This document shows, piece after piece, positions 726 through 16,068 of a stretch of 16,673 nt of DNA. The notes below the pieces were generated by a model that ran no database searches, was not told where the DNA came from, and saw only the letters and a list, made by a program, of their open reading frames with translations. A program made the translations under genes and the position numbers. How positions within the stretch are numbered: position 1 is the stretch's first letter; the number at the start of each line of letters is the position of its first letter. Source of the stretch: a virus (lineage: Duplodnaviria; Heunggongvirae; Uroviricota; Caudoviricetes); IMG/VR virus record IMGVR_UViG_2734482555_000001; one strand, 5' to 3'.

Positions 726-959
726 TCAATCTGGTCTAACCTGTTTTCTGAGCAATTCAGTAATGTCACTCTTTTCTTTGTTTGCTTCAGGCGAAACTCT
801 TTTTTCTGAGCACAGTCTCCGGCGGCAGGCTTCAATGACCCAGGCTGAGAAATTCCCGGACCCTTTTTGAACAAGAGCGATGTTAATTTGTTCAATCATT
901 TGGTTAGGAAAGCGGATGTTGCGGGTTGTTGTTCTGCGGGTTCTGTTCTTCGTTGACAT
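726..959 (-). CDS. Small DNA-binding protein, 77 aa, with a ribbon-helix-helix-like core (NIRFPNQMIEQINIAL...FSAWVIEACRRRL) after a basic Thr/Arg-rich N-terminus; probably YlcI/YnfO-like
   Basis: Minus-strand ORF with ATG at 959-957, ending 43 nt upstream of the next minus-strand gene. The strand-helix-helix residue pattern is typical of Arc/CopG-type repressors. The family name is recollection, not a search result. Confidence 0.65.
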   Translation of the reverse strand: MSTKNRTRRTTTRNIRFPNQMIEQINIALVQKGSGNFSAWVIEACRRRLCSEKRVSPEANKEKSDITELLRKQVRPD

Positions 960-1128
960 GAGGTTGCCCTGTATTCAGTGTCGCTGATTTGTATTGTCTG
1001 AAGTTGTTTTTACGTTAAGTTGATGCAGATCAATTAATACGATACCTGCGTCATAATTGATTATTTGACGTGGTTTGATGGCGTAGATGCACGTTGTGAC
1101 ATGTAGATGATAATTATTATCATTTTGC

Positions 1129-1143
1129 GGGTCCTTTCCGGCG
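1129..1143 (+). other. cosQ-like element (packaging termination signal) upstream of cosN
   Basis: Placed by position, about 16-30 bp upstream of the cosN nick, within GGGTCCTTTCCGGCGATCCGACAGGTTACG, which closely matches the lambda right end as I recall it. Confidence 0.4.
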
Positions 1144-1152
1144 ATCCGACAG

Positions 1153-1176
1153 GTTACGGGGCGGAAGGCGCGCGGG
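1153..1176 (+). other. cosN, the terminase nicking site; predicted 12-nt cohesive end GGGCGGAAGGCG (1159-1170)
   Basis: The flanks TTACG and CGCGGGTTTTCGCTATTTATGA match the lambda cos junction. The 12 nt between them differ from canonical GGGCGGCGACCT at five of the last six positions. Confidence 0.75.
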
Positions 1177-1204
1177 TTTTCGCTATTTATGACAATTTTC
1201 CGGT

Positions 1205-1325
1205 TTAAGGCGTTTCCGTTCTTCTTCGCCGTAACCTAATGTTTTTATTTAAAACACCCCCTGAAAAGAAAGGAAACGACAGGTGCTGAAAACGGGCTTT
1301 TTGGCCTCTGTCGTTTCCTTTCTCT
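1205..1325 (+). other. cosB terminase small-subunit binding region: R3 (about 1211-1226), A/T-rich IHF-like site I1 (about 1232-1260), R2 (1268-1282) and R1 (1308-1322) as an inverted pair
   Basis: CGTTTCCGTTCTTCTT at 1211-1226. GAAAGGAAACGACAG at 1268-1282 is the inverse of CTGTCGTTTCCTTTC at 1308-1322. The region lies directly upstream of Nu1. Confidence 0.7.
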
Positions 1326-1347
1326 GTTTTTGTCCGTGGAATGAACA

Positions 1348-1867
1348 ATGGAAGTCAACAAAAAGCAGCTGGCTGACATTTTCGGTGCGAGTATCCGTAC
1401 CATTCAGAACTGGCAGGAACAGGGAATGCCCGTTCTGCGAGGCGGTGGCAAGGGTAATGAGGTGCTTTATGACTCTGCCGCCGTTATAAGATGGTATGCC
1501 GAAAGGGATGCTGAAATTGAGAACGAAAAGCTGCGCCGGGAAGTTGAAGAACTGCGGCAGGCCAGCGAGACAGATCTCCAGCCAGGGACTATTGAGTACG
1601 AACGCCATCGACTTACGCGTGCGCAGGCCGACGCACAGGAGCTGAAAAATGCCAGAGACTCCGCTGAAGTGGTGGAAACCGCATTCTGTACTTTCGTGCT
1701 GTCGCGGATCGCAGGTGAAATTGCCAGTATTCTCGACGGGATCCCCCTGTCGGTGCAGCGGCGTTTTCCGGAACTGGAAAACCGACATGTTGATTTCCTG
1801 AAACGGGATATCATCAAAGCCATGAACAAAGCAGCCGCGCTGGATGAACTGATACCGGGGTTGCTGA

Positions 1868-1893
<26 letters not shown>
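1348..1893 (+). CDS. nu1: Terminase small subunit (gpNu1), 181 aa
   Basis: ORF begins MEVNKKQLADIFGASIRTIQNWQEQGMPV, the lambda Nu1 N-terminal winged-helix sequence. It lies just downstream of cosB. Confidence 0.95.
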
Positions 1894-5574
<3,681 letters not shown>

Positions 5575-5594
<20 letters not shown>

Positions 5595-6894
5595 TCTCCC
5601 GCATATTGCCAGCATGGCTTTTAATGAGCCGCTGATGCTTGAACCCGCCTATGCGCGGGTTTTCTTTTGTGCGCTTGCAGGCCAGCTTGGGATCAGCTGC
5701 CTGACGGATGCAGTATCCGGCGACAGCCTGACTGCCGGAGAGGCACCCGCGGCGCTGGCGTTATCCGGTGATGATGACGGACCACGACAGGCCCGCAGTT
5801 ATCAGGTAATGAACGGCATCGCCGTGCTGCCGGTGTCCGGCACGCTGGTCAGCCGGACGCGGGCGCTGCAGCCGTACTCGGGGATGACCGGTTACAACGG
5901 CATTATCGCCCGTCTGCAACAGGCTGCCAGCGACCCGATGGTGGACGGCATTCTGCTCGATATGGACACACCGGGCGGAATGGTGGCGGGAGCATTTGAC
6001 TGCGCTGACATCATCGCCCGTGTGCGTGACATAAAGCCGGTATGGGCGCTGGCCAATGACATGAACTGCAGCGCAGGTCAGCTGCTTGCCAGTGCCGCCT
6101 CCCGGCGTCTGGTCACGCAGACCGCCCGGACAGGCTCCATCGGCGTCATGATGGCTCACAGTAATTACGGCGCTGCACTGGAGAAACAGGGCGTGGAAAT
6201 CACGCTGATTTACAGCGGCAGCCATAAGGTGGATGGCAACCCCTACAGCCATCTACCGGATGATGTCCGGGAAACATTGCAGTCCCGGATGGATGCAACC
6301 CGCCGGATGTTTGCACAGAAGGTGTCGGCATATACCGGCCTGTCCGTGCAGGCTGTGCTGGATACCGAGGCTGCAGTGTACAGCGGTCAGGAGGCCATTG
6401 ATGCCGGACTGGCTGATGAACTTGTTAACAGTACCGATGCGATCACCGTCATGCGTGATGCACTGGATGCACGTAAATCCCGTCTCTCAGGAGGGCGAAT
6501 GACCAAAGAGACTCAATCAACAACTGTTTCAGCCACTGCTTCGCAGGCTGACGTTACTGGCGTGGTGCAAGCGACGGAGGGCGAGAACGCCAGCGCGGCG
6601 CAGCCGGACGTGAACGCGCAGATCACCGCAGCGGTTGCGGCAGAAAACAGTCGCATTATGGGGATCCTCAACTGTGAGGAGGCTCACGGACGCGAAGAAC
6701 AGGCACGCGTGCTGGCCGAAACCCCCGGTATGACCGTGGAAACGGCCCGCCGTATTCTGGCCGCAGCACCACAGAGTGCACAGACGCGCAGTGACACTGC
6801 GCTGGATCGTCTGATGCAGGGGGCACCGGCACCGCTGGCTGCAGGTAACCCGGCATCTGATGCCGTTAACGATTTGCTGAACACACCAGTGTAA
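5575..6894 (+). CDS. C: Head maturation protease / minor capsid protein gpC, 439 aa
   Basis: GTG start at 5575 preceded by AGGAGGAG, inside the 3' end of B. Product begins MTAELRNLPHIASMAFNEPLMLEP, the lambda C start. The ORF-track extension to 5440 is rejected. Confidence 0.9.
6289..6894 (+). CDS. nu3: Scaffolding protein gpNu3, 201 aa, translated from an internal in-frame start within C
   Basis: In-frame ATG at 6289 (MDATRRMFAQKV...) sharing the C stop codon; matches the nested C/Nu3 arrangement of lambda. Confidence 0.8.
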   Translation: MDATRRMFAQKVSAYTGLSVQAVLDTEAAVYSGQEAIDAGLADELVNSTDAITVMRDALDARKSRLSGGRMTKETQSTTVSATASQADVTGVVQATEGENASAAQPDVNAQITAAVAAENSRIMGILNCEEAHGREEQARVLAETPGMTVETARRILAAAPQSAQTRSDTALDRLMQGAPAPLAAGNPASDAVNDLLNTPV

Positions 6895-6903
6895 GGGATG
6901 TTT

Positions 6904-7236
6904 ATGACGAGCAAAGAAACCTTTACCCATTACCAGCCGCTGGGCAATAGTGACCCGGCTCATACCGCAACCGCGCCCGGCGGATTGAGTGCGAAAGCGC
7001 CTGCAATGACCCCGCTGATGCTGGACACCTCCACCCGTAAGCTGGTTGCGTGGGATGGCACCACCGACGGTGCTGCCGTTGGCATTCTTGCGGTTGCTGC
7101 TGACCAGACCAGCACCACACTGACGTTCTACAAGTCCGGCACGTTCCGTTATGAGGATGTGCTCTGGCCGGAGGCTGCCAGCGACGAGACGAAAAAACGG
7201 ACCGTGTTTGCCGGAACGGCAATCAGCATCGTTTAA
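6904..7236 (+). CDS. D: Head decoration protein gpD, 110 aa
   Basis: Begins [33 protein letters not shown] Shine-Dalgarno-like motif upstream. The alternative ATG at 6898 is rejected. Confidence 0.93.
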
Positions 7237-7253
7237 CTTTACCCTTCATCACT

Positions 7254-7278
7254 AAAGGCCGCCTGTGTGGCTTTTTTT
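7254..7278 (+). terminator. Terminator-like hairpin in the D-E intergenic region: stem GCCGC/GTGGC (one G-U pair), loop CTGT, followed by T7 and preceded by AAAG
   Basis: Read directly: AAAGGCCGCCTGTGTGGCTTTTTTT, lying between the D stop and the E start. Confidence 0.5.
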
Positions 7279-7291
7279 ACGGGATTTTTTT

Positions 7292-8317
7292 ATGTCGATG
7301 TACACAACCGCCCAGCTGCTGGCGGCAAATGAGCAGAAATTTAAGTTTGATCCGCTGTTTCTGCGTCTCTTTTTCCGTGAGAGCTATCCCTTCACTACGG
7401 AGAAAGTCTATCTCTCACAAATTCCGGGACTGGTAAACATGGCGCTGTACGTTTCGCCGATTGTTTCCGGTGAGGTTATCCGTTCCCGTGGCGGCTCCAC
7501 CTCTGAATTTACGCCGGGATATGTCAAACCCAAGCATGAGGTGAATCCGCAGATGACCCTGCGTCGCCTGCCGGATGAAGATCCGCAGAATCTGGCGGAC
7601 CCGGCTTACCGCCGCCGTCGCATCATCATGCAGAACATGCGTGACGAAGAGCTGGCCATTGCTCAGGTCGAAGAGATGCAGGCAGTTTCTGCCGTGCTCA
7701 AGGGCAAATACACCATGACCGGTGAAGCCTTCGATCCGGTTGAGGTGGATATGGGCCGCAGTGCGGCGAACAACATCACACAGTCCGGCGTCACGGAGTG
7801 GAGCAAGCGTGACAAGTCCACGTATGACCCGACCGACGATATCGAAGCCTACGCGCTGAACGCCAGCGGTGTGGTGAATATCATCGTGTTTGACCCGAAA
7901 GGCTGGGCGCTGTTCCGTTCCTTCAAAGCCGTCAAGGAGAAGCTGGATACCCGTCGCGGCTCTCATTCCGAGCTGGAGACAGCGGTAAAAGACCTGGGCA
8001 AAGCGGTGTCCTATAAGGGAATGTATGGCGATGTGGCCATCGTCGTGTATTCCGGACAGTACGTGGAAAACGGCGTCAAAAAGAACTTCCTGCCGGACAA
8101 CACGATGGTGCTGGGGAACACTCAGGCTCGCGGTCTGCGCACCTATGGCTGCATTCAGGATGCGGACGCACAGCGCGAAGGCATTAACGCTTCTGCCCGT
8201 TACCCGAAAAACTGGGTGACCACCGGCGATCCGGCGCGTGAGTTCACCATGATTCAGTCAGCACCGCTGATGCTGCTGGCTGATCCTGATGAGTTCGTGT
8301 CCGTTCAACTGGCGTAA
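7292..8317 (+). CDS. E: Major capsid protein gpE, 341 aa
   Basis: Begins MSMYTTAQLLAANEQKFKFDPLFLRLF and ends DPDEFVSVQLA. Length matches lambda E. The ORF-track start at 7265 is rejected. Confidence 0.95.
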   Translation: MSMYTTAQLLAANEQKFKFDPLFLRLFFRESYPFTTEKVYLSQIPGLVNMALYVSPIVSGEVIRSRGGSTSEFTPGYVKPKHEVNPQMTLRRLPDEDPQNLADPAYRRRRIIMQNMRDEELAIAQVEEMQAVSAVLKGKYTMTGEAFDPVEVDMGRSAANNITQSGVTEWSKRDKSTYDPTDDIEAYALNASGVVNIIVFDPKGWALFRSFKAVKEKLDTRRGSHSELETAVKDLGKAVSYKGMYGDVAIVVYSGQYVENGVKKNFLPDNTMVLGNTQARGLRTYGCIQDADAQREGINASARYPKNWVTTGDPAREFTMIQSAPLMLLADPDEFVSVQLA

Positions 8318-8319
8318 TC

Positions 8320-8346
8320 ATGGCCCTTCGGGGCCATTTTCTCTCT
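8320..8346 (+). terminator. Hairpin just after the E stop: 7-bp perfect stem ATGGCCC/GGGCCAT with a TTCG tetraloop, followed by TTTCTCTCT
   Basis: Read directly at 8320-8337, with a pyrimidine-rich tail at 8338-8346. It sits between E and FI. Confidence 0.5.
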
Positions 8347-8358
8347 GTGGAGGAGTTC

Positions 8359-8757
8359 ATGACGAAAGATGAACTGATTGCCCGTCTTCAGGAGCTGGGT
8401 GAGCAATTGAACCGCGATGTCAGTTTGACGGGAACGAAAGAAGAACTGGCGCTTCGTGTGGCAGAGCTGGAAGAAGAGCTTGATGACACGGATGAAACTG
8501 CCGGTCAGGACACCCCTCTCAGCCGGGAAAATGTGCTGACCGGGCATGAAAATGAGGTGGTATCAGCGCAGCCGGATACCGTGATTCAGGATACGGCTGA
8601 ACTGGTCACGGTCGTGGCACTGGTGACGCTGCATACTGATGCACTTCACGCCACGCGGGATAAACCTGTGGCATTTGTGCTGCCGGGAACGGCGTTTCGT
8701 GTCTCTGCCGGTGTGGCAGCCGAAATGACAGAGCGCGGCCTGGCCAGAATGCAATAA
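8359..8757 (+). CDS. FI: DNA-packaging / head assembly protein gpFI, 132 aa
   Basis: ATG at 8359 preceded by GGAGGAG. Product begins MTKDELIARLQELGEQL. The ORF-track start at 8320 lies inside the hairpin and is rejected. Confidence 0.9.
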   Translation: MTKDELIARLQELGEQLNRDVSLTGTKEELALRVAELEEELDDTDETAGQDTPLSRENVLTGHENEVVSAQPDTVIQDTAELVTVVALVTLHTDALHATRDKPVAFVLPGTAFRVSAGVAAEMTERGLARMQ

Positions 8758-8768
8758 CGGGAGGCGCT

Positions 8769-9122
8769 GTGGCTGATTTCGATAACCTGTTCGATGCTGC
8801 CATTGCCCGCGCCGATGAAACGATACGCGGGTACATGGGAACGTCAGCCACCATGACATCCGGTGAGCAGTCAGGTGCGGTGATACGTGGTGTTTTTGAT
8901 GACCCTGAAAATATCAGCTATGCCGGACAGGGCGTGCGCGTTGAAGGCTCCAGCCCGTCCCTGTTTGTCCGGACTGATGAGGTGCGGCAGCTGCGGCGTG
9001 GAGACACGCTGACCATCGGTGAGGAAAATTTCTGGGTAGATCGGGTTTCGCCGGATGATGGCGGAAGTTGTCATCTCTGGCTTGGACGGGGCGTACCGCC
9101 TGCCGTTAACCGTCGCCGCTGA
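8769..9122 (+). CDS. FII: Head completion protein gpFII, 117 aa
   Basis: GTG start preceded by GGGAGG. Product begins MADFDNLFDAAIARADETIRGYMG. Confidence 0.9.
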   Translation: MADFDNLFDAAIARADETIRGYMGTSATMTSGEQSGAVIRGVFDDPENISYAGQGVRVEGSSPSLFVRTDEVRQLRRGDTLTIGEENFWVDRVSPDDGGSCHLWLGRGVPPAVNRRR

Positions 9123-9133
9123 AAGGGGGATGT

Positions 9134-9712
9134 ATGGCCATAAAAGGTCTTGAGCAGGCCGTTGAAAACCTCAGCCGTATCAGCAAAACGGCGGTGCCCG
9201 GTGCCGCCGCAATGGCCATTAACCGCGTTGCTTCATCCGCGATATCGCAGTCTGCGTCACAGGTTGCCCGTGAGACAAAGGTACGCCGGAAACTGGTAAA
9301 GGAAAGGGCCAGGCTGAAAAGGGCCACGGTCAAAAATCCGCAGGCCAGAATCAAAGTTAACCGGGGGGATTTGCCCGTAATCAAGCTGGGTAATGCGCGG
9401 GTTGTCCTGTCCCGCCGCAGGCGTCATAAAAAGGGGCAGCGTTCATCCCTGAAAGGTGGCGGCAGCGTGCTTGTGGTGGGTAACCGTCGTATTCCCGGCG
9501 CGTTTATTCAGCAACTGAAAAACGGCCGGTGGCATGTTATGCAGCGTGTGGCCGGGAAAAACCGTTACCCCATTGATGTGGTGAAAATCCCGATGGCGGT
9601 GCCGCTGACCACGGCGTTTAAACAGAATATTGAACGGATACGGCGTGAACGTCTTCCGAAAGAGCTGGGCTATGCGCTGCAGCATCAACTGAGAATGGTA
9701 ATAAAGCGATGA
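9134..9712 (+). CDS. Z: Tail completion protein gpZ, 192 aa
   Basis: Position, length and order match lambda Z. GGGGGA Shine-Dalgarno-like motif upstream. Confidence 0.9.
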   Translation: MAIKGLEQAVENLSRISKTAVPGAAAMAINRVASSAISQSASQVARETKVRRKLVKERARLKRATVKNPQARIKVNRGDLPVIKLGNARVVLSRRRRHKKGQRSSLKGGGSVLVVGNRRIPGAFIQQLKNGRWHVMQRVAGKNRYPIDVVKIPMAVPLTTAFKQNIERIRRERLPKELGYALQHQLRMVIKR

Positions 9713-10104
9713 AACATACTGAACTCCGTGCAGCCGTACTGGATGCACTGGAGAAGCATGACACCGGGGCGACGCTTTTTGATGGTCGCCCCGCTGTTTT
9801 TGATGAGGAAGATTTTCCGGCAATTGCCGTTTATCTCACCGGCGCTGAATACACGGGCGAAGAGCTGGACAGCGATACCTGGCAGGCGGAGCTGCATATT
9901 GAAGTTTTCCTGCCTGCTCAGGTGCCGGATTCAGAGCTGGATTCGTGGATGGAGTCCCGGATTTATCCTGTGATGAGCGATATCCCGGCACTGTCAGATT
10001 TGATCACCAGTATGGTGGCCAGCGGCTATGACTACCGGCGCGACGATGATGCGGGCCTGTGGAGTTCAGCCGATCTGACTTATGTCATTATCTATGAAAT
10101 GTGA
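9709..10104 (+). CDS. U: Tail terminator protein gpU, 131 aa
   Basis: ATGA overlap with Z. Length and position match lambda U. Confidence 0.9.
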
Positions 10105-10111
10105 GGACGCT

Positions 10112-10852
10112 ATGCCTGTACCAAATCCTACAATGCCGGTGAAAGGTGCCGGGACCACCCTGTGGGTTTATAAGGGGAGCGGTGACCCTTATGCGAACCC
10201 GCTTTCAGACGTTGACTGGTCGCGTCTGGCAAAAGTTAAAGACCTGACGCCCGGCGAACTGACCGCTGAGTCCTATGACGACAGCTATCTCGATGATGAA
10301 GATGCAGACTGGACTGCGACCGGGCAGGGGCAGAAATCTGCCGGAGATACCAGCTTCACGCTGGCGTGGATGCCCGGAGAGCAGGGGCAGCAGGCGCTGC
10401 TGGCGTGGTTTAATGAAGGTGATACCCGTGCCTATAAAATCCGCTTCCCGAACGGCACGGTCGATGTGTTCCGTGGCTGGGTCAGCAGTATCGGTAAGGC
10501 GGTGACGGCGAAGGAGGTGATTACCCGCACGGTGAAGGTCACCAATGTGGGACGTCCGTCGATGGCAGAAGATCGCAGCACGGTGACGGCGACGACCGGC
10601 ATGACGGTGACACCCGCCAGTGCTTCCGTAGTGAAAGGGCAGAGCACCACGCTGACCGTGGCATTCCAGCCGGATGGCGCAACCGACAAGAGCTTCCGTG
10701 CGGTGTCTGCGGATAAAACAAAAGCCACCGTGTCGGTCAGTGGTATGACCATCACCGTGAAAGGTGTTGCTGCAGGCAAGGTCAACATTCCGGTCGTATC
10801 TGGTAATGGTGAGTTTGCTGCGGTTGCAGAAATCAACGTCACCGCCAGTTAA
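10112..10852 (+). CDS. V: Major tail tube protein gpV, 246 aa, with a C-terminal Ig-like domain
   Basis: ATG at 10112 preceded by GAGGA. Begins [22 protein letters not shown]. The C-terminal region ([25 protein letters not shown]...) is Big_2-like. The ORF-track start at 10082 is rejected. Confidence 0.93.
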
Positions 10853-10867
10853 TCCGGAGAGTCAGCG

Positions 10868-11290
10868 ATGTTCCTGAAAACCGAATCATTTGAACATAAC
10901 GGTGTGACCGTCACGCTTTCTGAACTGTCAGCCCTGCAGCGTATTGAGCATCTCGACCTGATGAAACGGCAGGCAGAACAGGCGGAGTCAGACAGCAACC
11001 GGAAGTTTACTGTGGAAGACGCCATCAGAACCGGCGCTTTTGTGGTTGCGATGTCCCTGTGGCATAACCATCCGAAGAAGACGCAGATGCCGTCCATGAA
11101 TGAAGCCGTTAAACAGATTGAGCAGGAAGTGCTTACCACCTGGCCCACAGAGGCAATTTCTCATGCTGAAAACGTGGTGTACCGGCTGTCCGGTATGTAT
11201 GAGTTTGTGGTGAATGATGCTCCTGAACAGGCAGAGGACGCCGGGCCTGCAGAGCCTGTTTCTGCGGGAAAGTGTTCGACGGTGAGCTGA
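10868..11290 (+). CDS. G: Tail assembly chaperone gpG, 140 aa
   Basis: Begins MFLKTESFEHNGVTVTLSELSALQRIEHLDL. Ends at TGA 11288-11290, just after the slippery site. Confidence 0.92.
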   Translation: MFLKTESFEHNGVTVTLSELSALQRIEHLDLMKRQAEQAESDSNRKFTVEDAIRTGAFVVAMSLWHNHPKKTQMPSMNEAVKQIEQEVLTTWPTEAISHAENVVYRLSGMYEFVVNDAPEQAEDAGPAEPVSAGKCSTVS

Positions 11291-11706
11291 GTTTTGCCCT
11301 GAAACTGGCGCGTGAGATGGGGCGACCCGACTGGCGCGCCATGCTTGCCGGGATGTCATCCACGGAGTATGCCGACTGGCACCGCTTTTACAGTACCCAT
11401 TATTTTCATGATGTTCTGCTGGATATGCACTTTTCCGGGCTGACGTACACCGTGCTCAGCCTGTTTTTCAGCGATCCGGAGATGCATCCGCTGGATTTCA
11501 GTCTGCTGAACCGGCGCGAGGCTGACGAAGAGCCTGAAGATGATGTGCTGATGCAGAAAGCGGCAGGGCTTGCCGGAGGTGTCCGCTTTGGCCCGGACGG
11601 GAATGAAGTTATCCCCGCTTCCCCGGATGTGGCGGACATGACGGAGGATGACGTAATGCTGATGACAGTATCAGAAGGGATCGCAGGAGGAGTCCGGTAT
11701 GGCTGA
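10868..11706 (+). CDS. G-T: Tail assembly chaperone gpG-T fusion, made by a programmed -1 ribosomal frameshift at 11266-11272
   Basis: The -1 frame after G GGA AAG continues as VFDGELSFALKLAREMGRPDWRAM... to a stop at 11704-11706. This matches the lambda G-T arrangement. Confidence 0.85.
11266..11272 (+). promoter_or_regulatory. Slippery heptamer G GGA AAG for the G to G-T -1 programmed frameshift
   Basis: GCG GGA AAG in the G zero frame, 16 nt before the G stop; the T frame is open from here. Confidence 0.85.
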
Positions 11707-14260
11707 ACCGGTAGGCGATCTGGTCGTTGATTTGAGTCTGGATGCGGCCAGATTTGACGAGCAGATGGCCAGAGTCAGGCGTCATTTTTCCGGTACGGAA
11801 AGTGATGCGAAAAAAACAGCGGCAGTCGTTGAACAGTCGCTGAGCCGACAGGCGCTGGCTGCACAGAAAGCGGGGATTTCCGTCGGGCAGTATAAAGCCG
11901 CCATGCGTATGCTGCCTGCACAGTTCACCGACGTGGCCACGCAGCTTGCAGGGGGGCAGAATCCCTGGCTGATCCTGCTGCAACAGGGTGGTCAGGTTAA
12001 GGACTCCTTCGGCGGGATGATCCCCATGTTCAGGGGGCTTGCCGGCGCGATCACCCTGCCGATGGTGGGGGCCACCTCGCTGGCGGTGGCGACCGGTGCG
12101 CTGGCGTATGCCTGGTATCAGGGCAACTCAACCCTGTCCGATTTCAACAAAACGCTGGTCCTTTCCGGTAATCAGGCGGGACTGACGGCAGATCGTATGC
12201 TGGTCCTGTCCAGAGCCGGGCAGGCGGCAGGGCTGACGTTTAACCAGACCAGCGAGTCACTCAGCGCACTGGTTAAGGCGGGGGTAAGCGGTGAGGCTCA
12301 GATTGCGTCCATCAGCCAGAGTGTGGCGCGTTTCTCCTATGCATCCGGCGTGGAGGTGGACAAGGTCGCTGAAGCCTTCGGGAAGCTGACCACAGACCCG
12401 ACGTCGGGGCTGACGGCGATGGCACGCCAGTTCCATAACGTGACGGCGGAGCAGATTGCGTATGTTGCTCAGTTGCAGCGTTCCGGCGATGAAGCCGGGG
12501 CATTGCAGGCGGCGAACGAGGCCGCAACGAAAGGGTTTGATGACCAGACCCGCCGCCTGAAAGAGAACATGGGCACGCTGGAGACCTGGGCAGACAGGAC
12601 TGCACGTGCATTCAAATCCATGTGGGATGCGGTGCTGGATATTGGTCGTCCTGATACCGCGCAGGAGATGCTGATTAAGGCAGAGGCTGCGTTTAAGAAA
12701 GCAGACGACATCTGGAATCTGCGCAAGGATGATTATTTCGTTAACGATGAAGCACGGGCGCGTTACTGGGATGATCGTGAAAAAAAACGCCTGGAGCGGG
12801 ATGCAGCCCAAAAGAGGGTAGATCAACAGCGTCAACAGGACAAAAATGCGCAGCAGCAGAGCGATACCGAAGCGTCACGGCTGAAATATACCGAAGAGGC
12901 GCAGAAGGCTTACGAACGGCTGCAGACGCCGCTGGAGAAATATACCGCCCGTCAGGAAGAACTGAACAAGGCACTGAAAGACGGAAAAATCCTGCAGGCA
13001 GATTACAACACGCTGATGGCGGCGGCGAAAAAGGATTATGAAGCGACGCTGAAAAAGCCGAAACAGTCCGGCGTGAAGGTGTATGCGGGCGATCGTCAGG
13101 AAGACAGTGCTCATGCGGCCCTGCTGACGCTTCAGGCAGAACTCCGGACGCTGGAGAAGCATGCCGGAGCGAATGAGAAAATCAGCCAGCAGCGCCGGGA
13201 TTTGTGGAAGGCAGAAAGTCAGTTCGCGGTACTGGAGGAGGCGGCACAACGTCGCCAGCTGTCCGCACAGGAGAAATCCCTGCTGGCGCATAAAGACGAG
13301 ACGCTGGAGTACAAACGCCAGCTGGCTGCACTTGGTGACAAGGTTACGTATCAGGAGCACCTGAATGCGCTGGCGCAGCAGGCGGATAAATTCGCACAGC
13401 AGCAACGGGCAAAACGGGCAGCCATTGATGCGAAAAACCGGGGGCTGACTGACCGGCAGGCAGCGCGGGAAGCCACGGAACAGCGCCTGAAGGAACAGTA
13501 TGGCGATAATCCTCTGGCGCTGAATAACGTCATGTCAGAGCAGAAAAAGACCTGGGCGGCTGAAGACCAGCTTCGCGGGAGCTGGATGGCAGGCCTGAAG
13601 TCCGGCTGGAGTGAGTGGGAAGAGAGCGCCACGGACAGTATGTCACAGGTTAAAAGTGCAGCCACGCAGACCTTTGATGGTATTGCACAGAATATGGCGG
13701 CGATGCTGACCGGCAGTGAACAGAACTGGCGCAGCTTCACCCGCTCCGTGCTGTCCATGATGACAGAAATTCTGCTTAAGCAGGCAATGGTGGGGATTGT
13801 CGGGAGTATCGGCAGCGCCATTGGCGGGGCTGTTGGTGGCGGCGCATCCGCGTCAGGTGGTACAGCCATTCAGGCCGCTGCGGTGAAATTCCATTTTGCA
13901 ACCGGGGGATTTACGGGAACCGGCGGCAAATATGAGCCAGCGGGGATTGTTCACCGTGGTGAATTTGTCTTCACGAAGGAGGCAACCAGCCGGATTGGCG
14001 TGGGGAATCTCTACCGGCTGATGCGCGGCTATGCGGAAGGTGGTTATGTGGGCGGTGCCGGAAGTCCGGCGCAGATGCGGCGGGCTGAAGGCATTAATTT
14101 TAATCAGAACAATCACGTGGTGATTCAGAACGACGGTACGAATGGTCTGCCAGGTCCACAGATGATGAAGGCCGTGTATGACATGGCCCGCAAGGGTGCC
14201 CGTGATGAAATTCAGACACAGATGCGTGATGGTGGCCTGTTCTCCGGAGGTGGACGATGA
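11699..14260 (+). CDS. H: Tail tape measure protein gpH, 853 aa
   Basis: 853-aa ORF with a long coiled-coil-like, Ala/Gln/Lys-rich central region and a Gly-rich C-terminal segment. Overlaps the T end. Length matches lambda H. Confidence 0.95.
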   Translation: MAEPVGDLVVDLSLDAARFDEQMARVRRHFSGTESDAKKTAAVVEQSLSRQALAAQKAGISVGQYKAAMRMLPAQFTDVATQLAGGQNPWLILLQQGGQVKDSFGGMIPMFRGLAGAITLPMVGATSLAVATGALAYAWYQGNSTLSDFNKTLVLSGNQAGLTADRMLVLSRAGQAAGLTFNQTSESLSALVKAGVSGEAQIASISQSVARFSYASGVEVDKVAEAFGKLTTDPTSGLTAMARQFHNVTAEQIAYVAQLQRSGDEAGALQAANEAATKGFDDQTRRLKENMGTLETWADRTARAFKSMWDAVLDIGRPDTAQEMLIKAEAAFKKADDIWNLRKDDYFVNDEARARYWDDREKKRLERDAAQKRVDQQRQQDKNAQQQSDTEASRLKYTEEAQKAYERLQTPLEKYTARQEELNKALKDGKILQADYNTLMAAAKKDYEATLKKPKQSGVKVYAGDRQEDSAHAALLTLQAELRTLEKHAGANEKISQQRRDLWKAESQFAVLEEAAQRRQLSAQEKSLLAHKDETLEYKRQLAALGDKVTYQEHLNALAQQADKFAQQQRAKRAAIDAKNRGLTDRQAAREATEQRLKEQYGDNPLALNNVMSEQKKTWAAEDQLRGSWMAGLKSGWSEWEESATDSMSQVKSAATQTFDGIAQNMAAMLTGSEQNWRSFTRSVLSMMTEILLKQAMVGIVGSIGSAIGGAVGGGASASGGTAIQAAAVKFHFATGGFTGTGGKYEPAGIVHRGEFVFTKEATSRIGVGNLYRLMRGYAEGGYVGGAGSPAQMRRAEGINFNQNNHVVIQNDGTNGLPGPQMMKAVYDMARKGARDEIQTQMRDGGLFSGGGR

Positions 14261-14586
14261 AAACCTTCCGCTGGAAAGTGAAACCCGGTATGGATGTGGC
14301 TTCGGCCCCTTCTGTAAGAAAGGTGCGCTTTGGTGATGGCTATTCCCAGCGAGCGCCTGCCGGGCTGAATGCCAACCTGAAAACGTACAGCGTGACGCTT
14401 TCTGTCCCCCGTGAGGAGGCCATGGTACTGGAGTCGTTTCTGGAAGAGCACGGGGGCTGGAAAGCCTTTCTGTGGACGCCGCCTTATGAGTGGCGGCAGA
14501 TAAAGGTGACCTGCGCAAAATGGTCGTCGCGGGTCAGTATGCTGCGTGTTGAGTTCAGCGCAGAGTTTGAACAGGTGGTGAACTGA
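14257..14586 (+). CDS. M: Tail tip assembly protein gpM, 109 aa
   Basis: ATGA overlap with the H stop. Length and position match lambda M. Confidence 0.9.
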   Translation: MKTFRWKVKPGMDVASAPSVRKVRFGDGYSQRAPAGLNANLKTYSVTLSVPREEAMVLESFLEEHGGWKAFLWTPPYEWRQIKVTCAKWSSRVSMLRVEFSAEFEQVVN

Positions 14587-15173
14587 TGCAGGATATCCGG
14601 CAGGAAACACTGAATGAATGCACCCGTGCGGAGCAGTCGGCCAGCGTGGTGCTCTGGGAAATCGATCTGACAGAGGTCGGTGGAGAACGTTATTTTTTCT
14701 GTAATGAGCAGAACGAAAAAGGTGAGCCGGTCACCTGGCAGGGGCGACAGTATCAGCCGTATCCCATTCAGGGGAGTGGTTTTGAACTGAATGGCAAAGG
14801 CACCAGTACGCGCCCCACGCTGATGGTTTCTAACCTGTACGGTATGGTCACCGGGATGGCGGAAGATCTACAGAGTCTGGTCGGCGGAACGGTGGTCCGG
14901 CGTAAGGTTTACGCCCGTTTTCTGGATGCGGTGAACTTCGTCAACGGAAACAGTGACGCCGATCCGGAGCAGGAGGTGATCAGCCGCTGGCGCATTGAGC
15001 AGTGCAGCGAACTGAGCGCGGTGAGTGCCTCTTTTGTACTGTCCACGCCGACGGAAACAGATGGCGCTGTTTTTCCGGGACGTATCATGCTGGCCAACAC
15101 CTGCACCTGGACCTATCGCGGCGATGAGTGCGGTTATCACGGTCCGGCGGTCGCGGATGAATATGACCAGCCA
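14586..15173 (+). CDS. L: Tail tip protein gpL, N-terminal 196 codons only; the 3' end is lost in the N-run
   Basis: ATG overlaps the M stop by 1 nt (TGATG). The ORF runs open into the N-run that begins at 15174. Confidence 0.85.
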
Positions 15174-15423
15174 NNNNNNNNNNNNNNNNNNNNNNNNNNN
15201 NNNNNNNNNNNNNNNNNNNNNNNNNNNNNNNNNNNNNNNNNNNNNNNNNNNNNNNNNNNNNNNNNNNNNNNNNNNNNNNNNNNNNNNNNNNNNNNNNNNN
15301 NNNNNNNNNNNNNNNNNNNNNNNNNNNNNNNNNNNNNNNNNNNNNNNNNNNNNNNNNNNNNNNNNNNNNNNNNNNNNNNNNNNNNNNNNNNNNNNNNNNN
15401 NNNNNNNNNNNNNNNNNNNNNNN
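15174..15423. other. Run of 250 N (assembly gap or masked sequence) covering the L 3' end and the L-K junction
   Basis: Uninterrupted n characters. Confidence 1.
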
Positions 15424-15748: not shown

Positions 15749-16068
15749 NNNNNNNNNNNNNNNNNNNNNNNNNNNNNNNNNNNNNNNNNNNNNNNNNNNN
15801 NNNNNNNNNNNNNNNNNNNNNNNNNNNNNNNNNNNNNNNNNNNNNNNNNNNNNNNNNNNNNNNNNNNNNNNNNNNNNNNNNNNNNNNNNNNNNNNNNNNN
15901 NNNNNNNNNNNNNNNNNNNNNNNNNNNNNNNNNNNNNNNNNNNNNNNNNNNNNNNNNNNNNNNNNNNNNNNNNNNNNNNNNNNNNNNNNNNNNNNNNNNN
16001 NNNNNNNNNNNNNNNNNNNNNNNNNNNNNNNNNNNNNNNNNNNNNNNNNNNNNNNNNNNNNNNNNNNN
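15749..16068. other. Run of 320 N (assembly gap or masked sequence) covering the K 3' end and the I 5' end
   Basis: Uninterrupted n characters. Confidence 1.

Follow-up and report, generated by a model that had tools for sequence, protein, structure and literature searches.

A five-substitution variant of the lambda cohesive end beside lambda-type terminase genes in Escherichia prophages and phage-plasmids

The cohesive-end segment GGGCGGAAGGCG, at positions 1159..1170 of the 16,673-nucleotide stretch of viral DNA analysed here (the window), is very probably a functional cosN allele of a lambda-like prophage that is cut by an unchanged terminase. Its left half is canonical, and its right half reads AAGGCG where lambda has CGACCT. 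The allele is an ordinary polymorphism and points neither to a new terminase nor to a packaging specificity of a new kind. What is notable about AAGGCG is that five changes occur together with lambda's own cosB and terminase, and that the allele is typical of lambda-headed phage-plasmids.

The cos site of the window

A reading made from the sequence alone (hereafter the sequence-only reading) had claimed that five of the last six cosN positions differ from the canonical end, that the flanks carry only scattered single substitutions, and that Nu1 and gpA are nearly identical to their lambda counterparts, and all three observations hold. Alignment with lambda and with four lambda-like phages (2H10, Turner, PhiR70_1, and an Stx1 phage), as that reading had proposed, confirms the variant hexamer. 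Relative to the lambda end GGGCGGCGACCT, cohesive-end positions 7, 8, 9, 10, and 12 are changed, and positions 1-6 and 11 are the same. The site, which like all features described here is given on the + strand, runs from TTACG (1154-1158) through GGGCGGAAGGCG (1159-1170) to CGCGGGTTTTCGC (1171-1183). The left half GGGCGG (1159-1164) precedes the right half AAGGCG (1165-1170), and the conserved CG dinucleotides located 5' of the inferred top-strand nick (1157..1158) and 3' of the inferred bottom-strand nick (1171..1172) are, like the left half, identical to those of lambda. The cosN 30-mer occurs once in the window and in 0 of 200 shuffles. No open reading frame of at least 60 aa was found to cover cosN in the window, and no run of N was found close to it.

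Outside cosN, the region from -45 to +140 contains 12 scattered single differences from lambda, none of which is in R3. Four of these lie in the 45 bp upstream of cosN (1114..1158), which contain the cosQ region and are otherwise collinear with lambda; each of the four is also frequent in other lambda-like loci. These 45 bp were treated as a whole conserved stretch. The cosB element R3, AGGCGTTTCCGTTCTT, is found at 1208..1223 and is identical to lambda bp 50-65 (coordinates from PMC9026076). Nu1 (TerS, 181 aa; 1348..1893) begins 190 nt downstream of the first cohesive-end base, as in lambda, and its product has 98.3% identity with lambda Nu1 (three substitutions). Gene A (TerL, 641 aa; 1868..3793) encodes a protein with 99.4% identity to lambda gpA, from which it differs, start codon apart, at residues 151, 185, 404, and 466.

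The dinucleotides flanking both nicks are highly conserved among cos sites, as is the left half (PMC4669245), and conservation of GGGCGG and CG serves as a criterion for recognizing such sites (PMC9303873, with PMC4669245). The window has GGGCGG with the nick-flanking CG dinucleotides, the upstream segment at lambda spacing, and R3 with terminase genes downstream. Judged by every sequence criterion tested, the site is a lambda-like cos, and it appears to join a known class of tolerated right-half cosN variants. Aside from the substitutions themselves, the site differs from lambda in the two-fold symmetry of the 16-bp core, which extends to 10 bp in lambda and to 8 bp in the window, with pairs 3/10 and 6/7 lost and pair 4/9 gained. 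Both overhangs have 10 of 12 GC positions, and their calculated nearest-neighbour stabilities (dG37) are -17.8 kcal/mol for the variant and -18.2 kcal/mol for lambda. The six bases that open the R3 region in the window (1207-1212; lambda bp 49-54, TTTAAGGCGTTTCC) likewise read AAGGCG, which is probably a chance event for a 6-mer within about 200 bp.

The changes in cosN are densely clustered. Window and lambda differ at 3.4% of 15,961 aligned bases, and in the main 14.4-kb block (797-15173) at least five mismatches per 6 bp are found only in cosN, at 8387-8390, and in two adjacent clusters at 14050-14066. With cosN as one of three such dense spots, the cluster is real and unusual for this alignment, and does not resemble uniform divergence. 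A small inversion was considered as the origin of the hexamer and rejected, given that the reverse complement of CGACCT is AGGTCG and not AAGGCG. The genes Nu1, A, W, B, C/Nu3, D, E, FI, FII, Z, U, V, G, T, H, and M are full length and encode products with 94-100% identity to those of lambda. Farther downstream, runs of N at 15174-15423 (250 bases) and 15749-16068 (320 bases) mask the L/K and K/I junctions, mimic mosaic patches in tblastn, and inflate the L reading frame to 298 codons. The apparent mosaic patches at L/K/I are thus an artefact of the data and not biology.

Distribution and carriers of the AAGGCG end

The variant end was sought with a 40-nt query built such that every 28-mer seed spans the variant hexamer. 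Among 5,426 complete E. coli genomes, a match of at least 28 nt across the hexamer was found in 155 (166 places, 16 of them on plasmids), and 12 genomes match all 40 nt exactly. The canonical end is present in 4,128 of the same genomes at 7,469 places (19 on plasmids), a count that takes in cryptic prophage remnants. AAGGCG thereby makes up about 2% of the lambda-type cosN copies in this set. Many of the prophage copies behind such genome counts may be defective, which is a point against taking every carrier as functional. It is also present in 23 PLSDB plasmid records (the canonical end in 30), in two phage records (PhiR46_1 and YDC107_1), in 78 IMG/VR viral contigs as an exact match, and in the species representative Escherichia sp. 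E1V33. The latter was the only relevant locus among the matches listed in a contig scan with ACGGGGCGGNNNNNNCGCGGGTT, the others being chance occurrences in GC-rich genomes such as those of Streptomyces.

The spectrum of right halves was obtained from complementary IUPAC scans of IMG/VR that required lambda-identical flanks, and it leaves aside changes at position 11 alone and one further matching contig, L344. The canonical CGACCT was seen in more than 117 contigs among the matches listed and AAGGCG in 78. The remaining alleles are CAGGCG (four contigs), CAGACG (three), AGACCT, TGACCT, and GAGCGT (two each), and CGACCG, AAGCGT, AAGGCT, and CTGACG (one each). AAGGCG is therefore by far the leading non-canonical right half, and its one-step satellites CAGGCG and AAGGCT are as expected of an established lineage. 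The deposited phage PhiR70_1 (PV340577.1) has a different one-step variant, GGGCGGAGACCT (C7A), whose A at position 7 is common to the window allele and whose full end is also found on two IMG/VR contigs. The sequence-only reading had reasoned that its proposal would lose force if this exact variant were already common among characterised lambdoid phages. For prophages and phage-plasmids that is largely the case; the exact 12-mer is named in none of the papers found, and a survey by Vahanian et al. (2017; Virology 509:140-145) may list it.

Some of the carriers are plasmid-like phages. PhiR46_1 was deposited as a complete phage genome, with ECOR13 as its laboratory host according to the GenBank host field, and its annotation includes telL and telR sites, ParA/ParB, a large primase, a cI repressor, and a complete lambda head-tail set. 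It is thus an N15-like linear-plasmid phage with lambda virion genes. A literature search found no paper describing PhiR46_1 or the PhiR phage set, and no phage record was found that starts at the variant end. YDC107_1 belongs to Ravinvirus by classification, and upstream of cos the same order of genes is seen in plasmid pAH01-1. The 23 variant-end plasmids come from E. coli, E. fergusonii, E. albertii, and Shigella sonnei, are all non-mobilizable, and are mostly 42-51 kb in length. By comparison, most of the canonical-end PLSDB matches lie on replicons of very large size, on small vectors, or on records of lambda size (48.5 kb) in species that are not hosts. With 16 of 166 variant places and 19 of 7,469 canonical places on plasmids, the enrichment of AAGGCG on plasmids is approximately 38-fold. 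The canonical lambda cos also appears in PLSDB records from Rahnella, Alicyclobacillus, Paenibacillus, Stenotrophomonas, and Bacillus thuringiensis (H141, H142, H153, H156, and H170), which are about 40-49 kb in length (two of exactly 48,499 bp), apart from a 109-kb Bacillus thuringiensis record; several of these look like lambda control DNA contamination deposited as plasmids.

The window shares the AAGGCG end and the lambda-type cosB, Nu1, and A with the PhiR46_1 and YDC107_1 phage-plasmids, but it differs from them in having A at -10 and T at -5, where they have G and C, and in the DNA to the left of cos, which is lambda-like and holds homologues of lambda right-end ORFs. To the right of cosN, the state of the window is enriched among variant loci at +35 (C in 11 of 83 variant and 2 of 120 canonical loci), +71 (C in 58 of 82 and 12 of 120), and +97 (C in 74 of 82 and 14 of 120), in a comparison whose canonical set was collected under tighter flank requirements than those applied to the variant loci, such that association at -4 to -1 is not meaningful and other flank positions are possibly somewhat biased as well. 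A lambda-like left flank joined to variant-enriched states on the right points to a lambda-type prophage whose cosN-cosB segment came from the variant lineage. Thus, from its sequence the window resembles an allele-bearing prophage of the lambda type and not a phage-plasmid. AAGGCG is the usual allele of lambda-headed N15-like phage-plasmids, is old and mobile, and has moved by recombination onto lambda-type flanks, those of the window among them. The A-to-C change at window position 1193 (lambda bp 35), between cosN and R3, marks a sub-lineage of variant cos sites.

Terminase independence and packaging of the variant site

The sequence-only reading had offered two forms of a terminase explanation, in which the enzyme either tolerates the altered right half-site or has co-evolved with it. 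Among 106 loci with enough sequence, 99 Nu1 and 88 gpA proteins were compared. Four distinct gpA and four distinct Nu1 sequences adjoin both alleles in independent elements, and for two of the four gpA pairs both members come from prophages of isolate genomes. A protein identical to the Nu1 of the window is also found beside canonical cosN. Its gpA is identical to two variant-linked gpA proteins and is 2-3 residues from several canonical-linked ones. No gpA column separates the alleles among the 74 gpA proteins of 641 aa, the best being N9D (46% versus 9%). Residues 151, 185, and 466 of the window gpA are polymorphic in both allele classes, and R404 is rare (3 of 41 variant-linked gpA proteins) and does not track the allele. 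Beyond the terminases, four left and four right flank haplotypes are common to both alleles, and AAGGCG also occurs with a second cosB type and a TerL about 65% identical to that of the window (L176, L178), a cosB type that is likewise found with the canonical end (L115). Neither the terminase nor the cosB type, therefore, governs which hexamer is present. Tolerance, in short, is indirectly supported by identical proteins beside both alleles, and co-evolution is not.

That terminase proteins have instead adapted to the altered half-site is very improbable. The weak linkage of gpA N9D and S21A to the allele is the kind of pattern such adaptation might leave, yet these residues are N-terminal and nearest cos, as physical linkage predicts. 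Both alleles are found with identical gpA and with identical Nu1, the window gpA is only 0-3 aa from gpA beside either allele, and none of its four differences from lambda tracks the allele.

In lambda-like phages, packaging specificity resides in cosB and TerS. The proposal that the variant end would be important for packaging specificity was overstated, since changes at bp 7-12, in the account of Xu and Feiss (1991) as cited in PMC4669245, are without measurable effect on cos cleavage or yield; in that same account, the symmetric left-half changes have severe effects. Once TerS holds it at R3, TerL nicks the bottom strand largely irrespective of sequence, right-half variants are nicked efficiently, and an exchange of cosN between lambda and N15 leaves yield unchanged (PMC4669245). 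Natural variation at bp 7-12 is common, as in N15 and phiD326 (positions 9 and 12) and Gifsy-1 (positions 8, 9, and 11) (PMC4669245), and the mEp213/LLS end is GGGCGGCGCGCT (positions 9 and 10) (PMC12315714). In all of these, as in the window, the changes are confined to bp 7-12, and the left half and nick-flanking bases are kept. The described variants carry two or three changes, whereas the window has five.

The N15 end, GGGCGGCGTCCG, has G at position 12 in common with the window. However, an N15-type (Ravinvirus) cos is recognized by this end together with a simple cosB containing a single R3, whereas the window differs from N15 both in the end and in its flank, its terminase and cosB are of lambda's own type, and N15 TerS is 57.5% identical to the window Nu1. 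N15 TerL (gene 2) has 87% identity with the window gpA by global alignment, and lambda and N15 TerL are given as 64.9% identical in PMC4669245; a different alignment method or a different protein may account for the discrepancy.

These observations can be assembled into a route by which the variant site would be packaged by an unmodified lambda-type terminase. As described in the literature, TerS (Nu1) would bind the unchanged cosB/R3 and position TerL (gpA), which would then nick the AAGGCG allele at CG-flanked positions 12 bp apart. The right half would not be read in a sequence-specific manner, as suggested by the published work on other right-half changes and, indirectly, by the identical terminases located beside both alleles. 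Tolerance of five simultaneous changes may be extrapolated in this way from the described variants with two or three; the reduced symmetry of the core counts against it. Cleavage would leave 12-nt 5' ends, GGGCGGAAGGCG and its complement, that should anneal within one chromosome with about the stability calculated for lambda, and because the ends are self-complementary and of near-equal calculated stability, the life cycle would be unaffected. The sole consequence would be poor annealing or ligation of an AAGGCG end with a canonical end, given five mismatches of which one is beside the bottom-strand nick, and this would be felt only where chromosomes are cut from mixed concatemers or where ends are joined in vitro. 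Ends with two mismatches lower yield four-fold, and both alleles segregate without repair (PMC4669245); thus five mismatches should strongly impair mixed ends.

Alternative readings and practical implications

Two other explanations raised by the sequence-only reading treat the hexamer as damage, either to the data or to the prophage. The clustering of the changes is the one feature that a sequencing or consensus error would account for, and the chance of such an error is close to nil: AAGGCG recurs in independent IMG/VR, PLSDB, and phage records as well as in the E. coli genomes, including the 12 that match the 40-nt query exactly and the 155 that match at least a 28-mer across the hexamer. 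An identical allele in hundreds of independent assemblies rules an error out. It is also improbable, if somewhat less so, that this copy is a packaging-defective or cryptic prophage whose altered half-site reflects decay. Only 16.7 kb of the element is visible, too little to assess the replication, immunity, and lysis regions, and L, K, and I are partly masked by runs of N, which leaves some room for such defects, but every gene from Nu1 to M has its full length and 94-100% identity to lambda, and decay would not arrive at these exact five changes independently in hundreds of elements. The carriers of AAGGCG moreover include the deposited phage genome PhiR46_1.

A more elaborate possibility, which is doubtful although less remote than those just described, is that the two main Escherichia end types are kept by selection as compatibility groups. 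AAGGCG would then mark a phage-plasmid lineage, the overhang might move as a cassette through heteroduplexes in mixed concatemers, and the five mismatches might form a partial barrier that limits hybrids between phage-plasmids and integrated, canonical-end prophages. Such a scheme is in keeping with the strongly two-peaked allele spectrum, in which other alleles are few, with the 38-fold plasmid enrichment, with the size and non-mobilizable character of the variant plasmids (which most canonical plasmid matches do not resemble), and with the cost and unrepaired segregation of two-mismatch ends noted above. It is also favoured by IMG/VR contig L016, which has the canonical end and is otherwise the same as PhiR46_1 from -160 to +700, the five cosN bases excepted. 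But L016 is one metagenomic contig, which shares its sample of origin (3300045988) with the variant twin L196, and it may be an assembly chimera; its haplotype with a canonical end is present in 0 of the 5,426 complete E. coli genomes, where the best match (97.5%) is a variant version. The low overall divergence of lambda-like modules can account for conservation of each allele without selection, and flanks and terminases common to both alleles indicate that any barrier is leaky. The preferred reading remains that of an ordinary cosN allele cut by an unchanged terminase.

Comparison of L016 with L006 and L196 places both cosN types on an otherwise identical 860-bp background, drawn from one metagenome and PhiR46_1. 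L016 and L196 are either co-existing near-isogenic phage-plasmids or the product of an assembly chimera. Two canonical-end "plasmids" were considered as isolate counterparts of L016 and were rejected, as they are not PhiR46-like.

The expectation that a naturally variant end stands beside a lambda-type terminase is borne out, and the allele, with its five substitutions, is a natural test of the functional asymmetry that has been reported for cosN. To the extent that tolerance can be inferred, AAGGCG would widen the tolerated sequence space of the right half past the two to three changes that have been studied. The practical value of the finding is modest. DNA from AAGGCG phages would not be expected to join lambda arms or cosmid ends by annealing or ligation. 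Software that annotates genomes or predicts termini by searching for GGGCGGCGACCT will overlook about 2% of the lambda-type cos sites of E. coli, and such a search will miss most cos sites on lambda-headed phage-plasmids. Annotation of these sites can go astray in another manner as well: some RefSeq annotations, for example that of pAH01-1 at 2834-3058, place a "hypothetical protein" coding sequence across cosQ and cosN, which is likely a spurious gene call.
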